From: an uncultured Planctomycetales bacterium
GTDB lineage: Bacteria > Omnitrophota > Gorgyraeia > Gygaellales > Profunditerraquicolaceae
Assembly (NCBI GenBank): GCA_964588175.1
Contig: CAZPNW010000074.1
Coordinates: 1 to 44,294, forward strand
Direction of reading: 5' to 3'
DNA: 44,294 nt
A program made the position numbers and the translations under genes. How positions within the stretch are numbered: position 1 is the first letter of the stretch; every line of letters starts with the position of its first letter. Below are positions 28,991 through 44,294 of the stretch, piece after piece. Below the pieces are notes generated by a model. That model saw only the letters and a list, made by a program, of their open reading frames with translations. It searched no databases and was not told where the DNA came from.

Positions 28991-29000
28991 GATTTTAATA

Positions 29001-29028
29001 ATTATACCAATTTTTTCATAATAGTCAA
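29001..29028 (-). promoter_or_regulatory. Sigma70-like promoter of tRNA-Thr
   Basis: On the minus strand: TTGACT (29028-29023), 16-nt spacer, TATAAT (29006-29001), about 10 nt before the mature tRNA 5' end. Confidence 0.6.
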
Positions 29029-29245
29029 TGTTTGGCTGCGGGAAAGCTTATGGGGTTTTAAAGCCCGGTTTTCCCGCTGCCCGGGGTTACCGGTACCCCA
29101 GTGCCCCAGCGTTTTAGTCACAGGTCACATGACACAATGACACAAGCCACAGGACACAGGTCACACGTAGTCCATGGTCCACGGTCCATAGTTAAGGAAA
29201 ACCCAGAGGAACCGGAAAGCCAGGGCTAGGTGATCAGGGGATCTG

Positions 29246-29432
29246 GTGAACGGGTGGCTTGGACTGTTTACGAGCGGGGCATAAAGGCAAGCCTGCCTGA
29301 CGGCAGTCAGGGAGCGGGCACGGATGCCCCTCGTTATACGAAGTCGGGCAGAGCGACGCAGCCGACCTGAGTGCAGCCCCGCCACGTCGGGGCGGGGCAA
29401 ACCTGCCTGACGGCAGTCAGGGAGCCGTTCAC
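29246..29432 (-). ncRNA. Candidate structured RNA core of unknown family (strand inferred, not proven)
   Basis: Closing helix GTGAACGG (29246-29253) / CCGTTCAC (29425-29432). Internal helices at 29270-29282/29324-29334, 29343-29349/29361-29366 and 29376-29383/29391-29398. Exact 24-nt duplicate CCTGCCTGACGGCAGTCAGGGAGC at 29292-29315 and 29402-29425. One compensatory base-pair change relative to the copy at 44262-44294. Confidence 0.4.
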
Positions 29433-29514
29433 TAATAAAGACACTAGGTCTCATGTCGCAAGTCACAAGTAGTTCATGGACTGTTGACTATTTGCGACAT
29501 GTGACCTTTTATGT

Positions 29515-37558: not shown

Positions 37559-37680
37559 GTAGTTAGGTTATGGTTAAGCAGTTAGTTTAGTGGTTAGGTA
37601 AAGTAGTTTGGTTCTAAAACCCAATTACTTTACCCAACAACCAAACAAATAACTTGACCCTAACCTAACTACCATTTTTT
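37559..37680 (+). terminator. Very long (~115 nt) imperfect hairpin with strand-asymmetric arms followed by a T-run; probable terminator or REP-like element
   Basis: The G/T/A-only left arm GTAGTTAGGTTATGGTTAAG...GGTAAAGTAGTTTGG (37559-37611) pairs with the A/C/T-only right arm CCAATTACTTTACC...CCCTAACCTAACTAC (37621-37672). ATTTTTT follows at 37674-37680. Confidence 0.6.
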
Positions 37681-43849: not shown

Positions 43850-43945
43850 TAGCTTTAGTGTTGGTTAAGTCGAAGGGTTTACCCTGAGCGCCTGATAGCT
43901 TTACCTGTTAATTCAGTCGAAGGGCTTACCCTGAGCGTGTAGCTT
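43831..43945 (+). repeat. Three tandem copies (46-47-bp period) of the last codons and stop of phoR
   Basis: GTTTACCCTGAGCGTCTGATAGCTTTA (43831-43857, includes the phoR stop), GTTTACCCTGAGCGCCTGATAGCTTTA (43877-43903) and GCTTACCCTGAGCGTGTAGCTT (43924-43945). The last two are each preceded by GTCGAAGG. Confidence 0.8.
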
Positions 43946-43993
43946 CCTAATTTCGAAATCTCCGGATATCCCATTTTCCTCTAATTTTATGAT

Positions 43994-44178
43994 GTAACTT
44001 TACGGTCATGCTTACGCGCACTGAAAACTTTCGCCGTGCACTGCGGTTTACGGCTCGTTTACGCTATAGACTTACGTAAAGAGCGCGCTTCAACTCGCCG
44101 TAATCCCTTGTGCACTCCAGGTAAAACTCAGTGCCGAAAGTTTTCTAATGTGCGCTCCAGCATAACCGTAAAGTTTAC
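43994..44178. repeat. Long imperfect hairpin (~40-bp stem) built from reiterated TTACG/CGTAA motifs
   Basis: GTAACTTTACGGTCATGCT...GAAAACTTTCG (43994-44033) against CGAAAGTTTTC...AGCATAACCGTAAAGTTTAC (44135-44178). TTACG occurs at 44000, 44012, 44048, 44059 and 44072; CGTAA at 44075, 44099 and 44167. Confidence 0.7.
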
Positions 44179-44181
44179 CAC

Positions 44182-44294
44182 CAACCATGGACTATCGACC
44201 ATTGACCATCGACTCTTTGCGACATGGGACCTGCGACTTGTGTCCGGTTAATGTCCTTATGAGTGAACGGGTCCCTGCCTACCGGCAGGCAGGC
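44182..44294 (+). repeat. Second copy (inverted relative to the first, truncated by the window end) of the 29117-29753 element: heptad GAC block plus the start of the structured core
   Basis: GAC at 44190, 44197, 44204, 44211, then 44221, 44228, 44235. GCGACATGGGACCT...GAGTGAACGGGTCCCTGCCTACCGGCAGGCAGG aligns with the reverse complement of 29401-29500. Confidence 0.7.

Follow-up and report, generated by a model that had tools for sequence, protein, structure and literature searches.

A remnant of a dispersed palindromic repeat at the end of an Omnitrophota contig

What is the short sequence at the right-hand edge of this contig, downstream of phoR, that resembles a second stretch of the same contig in inverted orientation? 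The window that we analysed is 44,294 nt long and makes up the entire contig C74 of a 2.37-Mb, 233-contig MAG (genome G000), which we compare with two congeneric genomes, G001 and G002. A preliminary description of the sequence saw in the two stretches diverged copies of one dispersed family, either of RNA genes or of non-autonomous mobile elements. Here we ask whether the resemblance is real, how the edge copy continues and what kind of element it represents; the name ‘X element’ is coined here, and the family is defined by a covariance model, R1.

The copy at the contig edge and its continuation

A blastn search of the whole 2.37-Mb assembly aligned 44222-44293 (within copy 2) with the reverse complement of 29402-29470 (within copy 1) at 77.8% over 72 nt (E 1e-9). 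An inverted-repeat search paired 29402-29446 with 44249-44293 (45 nt, 84% complementary) and, separately, 29291-29313 with 44272-44294. The covariance model gives minus-strand copy 1 a score of 92 bits; for copy 2, the plus strand scores 25 bits and the opposite strand 11 bits. The blastn score and the opposite-strand model matches thus bear out the earlier view that a second, inverted and diverged copy lies at the window edge. The features of the two loci are as follows, in window coordinates unless prefixed by a contig name.

43831..43945, plus strand: tandem 46-47-nt reiteration of the phoR 3′ end, three units, the first module of the spacer
43994..44178, unstranded: TTACG-rich hairpin module, 185 nt, multi-copy
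44185..44215, plus strand: A-type heptamer array CCATGGACTATCGACCATTGACCATCGACTC, a direct repeat of the array at C148:170-199
44216..44245, plus strand: B-type heptamer array TTTGCGACATGGGACCTGCGACTTGTGTCC, with a similar array after the element at C148:200-230
44246..44262, plus strand: outer 5′ extension GGTTAATGTCCTTATGA, a variant of the GGTTAGTATTTTTATTA that precedes intact copies, identified by comparing the flanks of 30 copies
44263..44273, plus strand: 5′ terminal inverted repeat of X, GTGAACGGGTC, located by regular expression and blast module map; the 5′ terminus of the model aligns here
44274..44293, unstranded: H module, a 20-nt palindrome CCTGCCTACCGGCAGGCAGG in the 5′ bulge of the outer stem
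C148:103-159: continuation of copy 2
C148:151-159: partner terminal repeat of copy 2, CCCGTTCAC
29241..29437, minus strand: copy 1, an X element with its centre and without the 5′ arm of the outer stem (92.2 bits, E 2.5e-18, model positions 1-183)
29402-29422 and 29292-29312: the two H modules of copy 1
29432-29425 and 29254-29246: terminal inverted repeats of copy 1

The assembly of C74 halts one base past the palindrome at 44274-44293 and, as the window is the whole contig, the edge at which copy 2 had seemed to begin is simply the point where the assembler stopped. A second contig, C148 (1,864 nt), opens with 102 nt that reproduce 44193-44294 with a single mismatch, G44227A. Past this overlap, C148 contains 27 nt that are absent from copy 1 and then GCTCGTAAACAGTCCAAGCCACCCGTTCAC, which is identical to the copy-1 3′ end (29275-29246) and supplies the final 30 nt of copy 2. 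Read across the join, copy 2 spans 89 nt and consists of GTGAACGGGTC, the palindrome CCTGCCTACCGGCAGGCAGG, CTGCCTTGGCTGATTCCCTCGCAGGGACG and then CTCGTAAACAGTCCAAGCCACCCGTTCAC. An ORF on C148 encodes a PstS-type binding protein (PBP_like_2, PF12849, E 5e-48) and is followed by a membrane-protein ORF. In G001, a congeneric MAG, a single contig carries phoB-phoR, the spacer, pstS and the gene after it, at 81-88% identity to C74 plus C148; the closest relative of the window PhoR (81% identity) comes from a MAG labelled Candidatus Omnitrophota bacterium, which establishes the phylum. Because the 102-nt overlap and the phoB-phoR-pstS synteny in G001 both support the join, we conclude that C74 continues into C148 and that the contig broke inside the repeat. 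C198:2929-3025, which is 97% identical to the contig end, is ruled out as the continuation by its own left flank and its different gene context. Position 44227 itself is G at the end of C74 and A at the start of C148, with A also in C198; the difference may reflect strain heterogeneity, or reads of another copy collapsed into the contig end.

Two earlier expectations can be judged against the joined sequence. First, immediate divergence beyond 44294 had been named as the outcome that would undo the similarity; instead the sequence returns to the copy-1 3′ end, and the similarity therefore stands. Second, having GTGAACGG first had been taken to mark the strand, a reading that fails: GTGAACGG forms a terminal inverted repeat, present at either end, which leaves the internal asymmetry of the element as the only marker of strand. 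Although the aligned stretch in the window is short (72 nt) and contains a simple palindrome, the idea that GC-rich low-complexity sequence matches here by chance is already refuted by the E value of 1e-9, the collinearity of three blocks once C148 is added, the identical 30 nt at the 3′ end and the family model matching both copies.

Copy 2 sits in a phoR-pstS spacer of ~775 nt, in which tandem copies of the phoR 3′ end are followed by the TTACG hairpin, heptamer arrays, the shell of an X element and further arrays. The phoR 3′-end units number three in G000 and six in G001. Partial copies of the TTACG hairpin recur at ~9 other places (on C4, C14, C20, C39, C86, C135, C147, C165 and C210), with 72-85% of the module covered and 84-94% identity in each case; some of them adjoin X shells. 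In the G001 spacer another palindrome replaces the TTACG hairpin and the X shell, and the right-hand arrays and pstS promoter are shared with G000. This palindrome belongs to another repeat type, a long one of GGTTAAG/GGTAGTT-like words, often with a CCTGCCTGCAGTCAGG centre, that is also found in the window at 37559-37672 and in G000 at C76:14310-14600. A third heptamer type, the CCCCAGT-like array (GTGCCCCAG / CACCAGT ...) beside tRNA-Thr at window 29000-29130 and in its G001 ortholog, is reminiscent of cyanobacterial STRR repeats.

In ~10 other Omnitrophota genera, the interval between phoR and pstS holds a gene of ~220 aa for a secreted DUF2490 protein (PF10677) with a Pho-box-like promoter (loci L064, L067, L069, L070, L074, L078, L079 and L082). 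The window genus has no such gene at this locus (43850-44294 plus C148:1-432, L001), where repeat mosaic takes up the space, and a tblastn search of the G000 assembly found no DUF2490 remnant or copy.

Architecture, distribution and turnover of the X family

Comparison of copies from G000, G001 and G002 defines the full X unit as an imperfect palindrome of ~180 nt. Intact copies are bounded by a terminal inverted repeat, GTGAACGGG...CCCGTTCAC, whose pairing continues into P1, an outer stem of at least 30 bp with a conserved TC/TC internal loop. Within this stem lie P2, a 9-bp hairpin with the conserved loop CCRGCGT; a conserved, unpaired 21-nt segment, CTCAGGTCGGCTGCGTCGCTC; P3, a variable hairpin; and a second conserved unpaired segment, CACCGTGCCCGCTCCTTGCCTTTATG. 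Units ‘framed’ as GTGAACGG...CCGTTCAC occur only 4 times in the assembly, and their modules occur at >25 loci. Long-range pairing of the two conserved segments, as suggested by RNAalifold, was dropped from the model because changes in the divergent subfamily do not compensate.

The stems, by contrast, covary strongly. In a 61-sequence alignment, 94.4% of stem cells are paired, compared with 38-45% when the partners are slid, and double changes are seen in 32 of the 38 stem pairs. Double-change cells number 408 against 117 in shuffles, and none of 500 shuffles reaches 408. An intact copy folds at −92 kcal/mol (z −6.8). The covariation proves that X is under hairpin constraint, yet it does not discriminate a folded RNA from a folded DNA.

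A separate 20-nt palindrome, H (CCTGCCTGCCGGCAGGCAGG and variants), is present at ~59 sites in G000 (118 matches over both strands), and it is shared without change by many genera in the order. Alignment with copies that lack H (GGGTC|CTGTC) reveals it as a precise insertion of 20 nt, found at three fixed points of X. Inside X elements this insert comes without a duplication; some solitary H palindromes at loci of other genera (L007, L010 and L020) are flanked by direct repeats that vary in length, for example CTTATC on both sides in L010 and AAAAGTTTAAA in L007. At L008, L012 and L062, H lies at the tip of a longer, locus-specific hairpin. An additional nested hairpin, CCCGTTAGAAACCACGTTTTCTAACGGGG, interrupts the conserved GTGCCCGC|TCC segment in G001 (L168, L169 and L171) and in G000 (C13:13030-13060), and the C76 short form of X seems to derive from a variant with this nested hairpin.

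Measured against this architecture, both window copies are damaged. In copy 1 (92 bits), the outer stem is missing its 5′ arm, and the centre and two H modules remain. What survives of copy 2 is the terminal repeats of the family, a single H, the 5′ arm and a portion of the 3′ arm. Its alignment to R1 lacks 110 of 183 positions, among them the entire conserved centre (P2 hairpin, CTCAGGTCGGCTGCGTCGCTC, P3 and GTGCCCGCTCCTTGCCTTTA), and scores 25 bits, compared with 90-212 bits for intact copies. Because the centre is absent, we regard copy 2 as a deletion remnant rather than an intact member, and its loss therefore makes copy 2 most likely inert, or ‘dead’. The two strands of the remaining shell fold at −39 and −44 kcal/mol (z −3.0 and −3.8). 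At most, copy 2 would fold into a stable hairpin, either as DNA or within a transcript that reads through it. In other shortened forms (C198:2994, C63, C146, C210 and C76), the junctions lie at H modules or other internal repeats, which fits deletion through recombination between nested repeats.

The dispersed family proposed at the outset proved to be far larger than the two copies in the window. R1, with 183 positions and built from 19 copies, matches full-length copies at 90-212 bits in G000, G001 and G002 and at 27 loci in other genera, and more full-length copies in 20 additional metagenome contigs from other samples. Within one Omnitrophota family, it finds matches in 109 of 139 genomes and 58 of 71 genera, up to at least 19 per genome and about 670 or more over the 109 genomes. 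G000 itself has at least 19 matches; the genome-wide count and flank survey that had been suggested places them in short intergenic spacers, in both orientations. Outside this family but in the same order, X was detected in only a few genomes at the blastn level. Two viral contigs that share a 17-mer give no R1 match, and a phage origin was rejected. Searches of Rfam 15 with both copies and an intact copy, at gathering and at permissive E-value thresholds, returned only tRNAs and noise, and a text search of the literature found no paper on repeats in the phylum Omnitrophota; the X family appears to be undescribed.

Orthologous sites reveal extensive insertion polymorphism. The locus of copy 1 is a plain ~160-nt spacer in G002, contains no more than heptamer arrays and a short hairpin in G001, and in G000 holds a block of ~320 nt (arrays plus X) with a second block inserted into those arrays. 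The copy at C198:1318 is missing from G002 and is represented in G001 by a strongly diverged, AT-richer version with compensated stems. The whole C76 cluster is absent in G002. Copies of one subfamily, 96-99% identical, occupy the C198:5187 site in both G000 and G002, whereas the G001 element there belongs to a second subfamily and shows 93% identity to an X copy from an unrelated G000 locus. This single intergenic site (G000 C198:5172-5351, G001:C3:49846-50024 and G002:C9:13219-13398) has stem differences that are fully compensated. The differing subfamilies suggest replacement or gene conversion at a fixed site. Near-identical copies also occupy non-orthologous sites within each genome, and a small clade is private to G002.

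The segments that distinguish filled from empty sites exceed X in size and lie within periodic arrays, and no consistent target duplication is seen; the flanks of 30 copies share no direct repeat. Because what is gained in the genus is a block of heptamer arrays together with X rather than a lone X, the turnover could be due to recombination or gene conversion with no transposition involved, and array recombination explains the gained blocks as well as transposition does. Heptamer arrays flank X only in the window genus, and we therefore rejected them as a general feature of the element.

Repeat, transposon derivative or RNA

Beyond the observed family membership, architecture, distribution, covariation, insertion polymorphism and contig join, we consider it likely that X is a non-autonomous DNA repeat of the ERIC/MITE/BIME kind rather than an RNA gene, and that 44185-44294 is the left part of a decayed member. 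In such a family, the constraint would act on DNA hairpins, through a putative trans-acting enzyme or through recombination. X copies sit in short intergenic spacers in either orientation, and orthologous sites gain and lose copies and exchange one subfamily for another. The H palindrome invades X at its three fixed points; the short forms could then arise where nested H copies recombine and through further deletions inside the element. The unpaired segments conserved in >50 genera and the covarying stems limit how far the evidence favours DNA, as they also fit a functional RNA.

Could X be a classical MITE, the deletion derivative of an IS element, with a DDE transposase binding the terminal repeats TGAACGGG/CCCGTTCA and possibly a TA target? 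X resembles MITEs in its terminal inverted repeats, small size (<300 nt), multiple copies, lack of an ORF and insertion polymorphism, and many copies are flanked by ...TTA|GTGAAC and GTTCAC|TAA.... The flanking TTA/TAA, however, is a portion of a more extended inverted repeat, many copies have it on one side only, no direct target duplication is demonstrable at the sites compared, and no longer element with the same termini was seen. Moreover, X combines a freely covarying stem interior with a conserved centre, the reverse of the pattern in a typical MITE. We therefore judge this origin unlikely. No pair of terminal repeats up to 600 nt apart in G000 encloses an ORF. A transposase between paired inverted X copies was also sought and rejected, as the enclosed genes encode a small secreted protein (with a c-di-GMP riboswitch) and a hypothetical membrane protein. 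The riboswitch, of class c-di-GMP-I (RF01051, 81 bits), is at G000 C128:3760-3847 (L155:1361-1448), upstream of a gene for a 178-aa secreted protein that is bracketed by two inverted X elements, an arrangement that recurs in metagenome contigs L239 and L240.

A different possibility is that X represents an undescribed class of structured nucleic acid in one Omnitrophota family, acting either as a functional RNA or as a folded single-stranded DNA substrate for a recombinase or HUH enzyme. We regard this idea as doubtful. As an RNA it would have two conserved single-stranded segments and might, for instance, bind proteins or catalyse a reaction from within operon transcripts. Were it correct, presence in ~80% of genomes and genera would signify function and not parasitism alone, and the window copies would be pseudogenes of that class.

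Somewhat more specifically, X could be a family of functional structured RNAs, either sRNAs or cis-elements in operon transcripts, with the window copies as paralogous genes or pseudogenes. Very strong stem covariation, unpaired segments conserved across 58 genera, the z-score of −6.8 for an intact copy and the location of X within probable operon transcripts are all features that such a family would share. Four other lines of evidence speak against it, and we hold it to be improbable. First, functional RNA is normally far more tolerant of G:U than of A:C pairs; in X stems the two are equally rare, with G:U in 41 cells and A:C in 34, each ~2%. Second, orientation relative to co-directional neighbours, judged from ORF proxies, is nearly balanced, with 7 sense and 10 antisense copies in G000, 20 and 14 in other genera and thus 27 and 24 in total. 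The preliminary suggestion that orientation hints at the transcribed strand does not survive these counts. Third, X copies start 0-60 nt past the upstream stop codon and end 3-110 nt ahead of the next start codon; by filling such short spacers, they therefore leave no room for a separate promoter, and the family has no terminator and no Rfam match. Finally, orthologous sites in sister species are empty or subfamily-swapped, and copy 2 lacks the whole conserved centre. A scan of the sequence surrounding copy 2 found no promoter-like or terminator-like site there; the sole promoter-like site nearby is the pstS promoter at C148:364-392, beside a Pho-box-like CTTTACATAGATTTAACA. We also considered the −10-like TATAAG/TATTAG boxes that precede GTGAACGG as promoters and rejected them, as they belong to the extended inverted repeat.

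Together, the G:U count, orientation, spacing and turnover point to DNA, or at least to the lack of a single functional RNA strand. With respect to the original pair of choices, a non-autonomous mobile element is thus favoured by the empty sites, the near-identical non-orthologous copies and the lack of promoter room, and a dispersed RNA gene family is disfavoured by the absence of an Rfam match, the G:U and A:C counts (41 and 34) and the random orientation.

If X is a DNA repeat, one must ask whether it is of the REPIN type, moved by a RAYT (Y1/HUH) transposase that works on hairpins of single-stranded DNA. Insertion apparently without target duplications and a requirement for Watson-Crick hairpins would suit this mode, and Y1_Tnp genes are available, with 5 in G000 and representatives in 31 of 41 relatives. 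Each G000 Y1_Tnp gene is, however, flanked by its own, different inverted repeats, and among 35 Y1_Tnp loci none has X in its flanks and one has H within 1.5 kb. Moreover, the real REP family of G000 is the AAGACCGGGTCTT repeat, whose ~110 sites fit the definition of REPs as 20-40-nt units in >100 copies, whereas X (at least 19) and H (~59) do not. As Y1_Tnp genes carry their own flanking repeats and none of the 35 loci has X, we rejected RAYT as the X mobiliser and consider a REPIN identity very improbable. The AAGACCGGGTCTT hairpins are usually paired 37 nt apart and are unrelated to X and H. A REP-RAYT pair is evident at G000 C23:4848-5877, where arrays of 129-nt units with AAGACCGGGTCTT hairpins surround a Y1_Tnp gene (C23:5145-5846, minus strand).

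Relation to known repeats and significance

The likeness of X to known repeats is one of behaviour. Part of the ERIC properties used in our comparison reportedly stems from work by Hulton in 1991 and by Wilson and Sharp in 2006. Like ERIC/IRU elements, X is a non-coding imperfect palindrome in the 100-200-nt range with tens of copies per genome (PMC3184786 and general background). Both are found in transcribed intergenic regions in either orientation, are conserved between genera, have size variants that arise by internal insertions or deletions and have no known dedicated transposase. X nevertheless appears unrelated to ERICs in sequence, is longer (~180 nt against a 127-bp enterobacterial consensus), occurs in another phylum, Omnitrophota, and differs in its non-palindromic centre, two conserved unpaired segments and two covarying hairpins; we liken it to ERICs by behaviour without assigning it to them. 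ERIC-type elements also have TA-flanked termini and target duplications (PMC3184786), which are not demonstrable for X at the sites compared.

With REP, BIME and REPIN sequences, X shares GC-rich palindromic units, intergenic mosaic clusters, nesting, alternating orientations and compensatory evolution of hairpin arms (PMC3116915, PMC2817692). It differs from REPs and REPINs in that X and H do not flank RAYT genes at the loci examined, copies number 10-20 rather than hundreds and G000 has a separate REP-RAYT pair. The modular BOX elements of Streptococcus pneumoniae provide another parallel, with conserved pairing ends, variable internal modules and short forms produced by module loss (PMC3184786). 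BOX sequences are unrelated to X, however, and contain tandem boxB units, whereas the variable parts of X are nested palindromes and deletions. In Neisseria, NIMEs consist of 20-bp dRS3 inverted repeats interspersed with longer repeats, and dRS3 is a target of phage integration. The 20-nt H within intergenic mosaics is comparable to dRS3. Correia elements are 100-150 nt long and bounded by terminal inverted repeats (PMC3184786). X has no sequence similarity to NIMEs or Correia elements, and the TA duplication and IHF site are Correia features.

At this locus, the object in the window looks like an ordinary relic in the style of selfish DNA, not a gene. Recognizing the X repeat explains where C74 ends and joins it to C148, and it makes the phoR-pstS spacer a stretch of repeat debris rather than a regulatory RNA. 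The family breaks assemblies, with this kind of repeat mosaic ~3× enriched at contig ends, and its recognition guards against false calls of RNA genes.

More broadly, the parent family is an apparently undescribed, family-wide element of ERIC/BIME-like character, with a conserved unpaired core that leaves a small chance of something more. A usable covariance model is now available for a repeat family found in most genomes of one family of an uncultured phylum. X could serve as a marker for strain-level comparison, and it offers a tractable case for understanding how ERIC-like palindromes spread without a known transposase.
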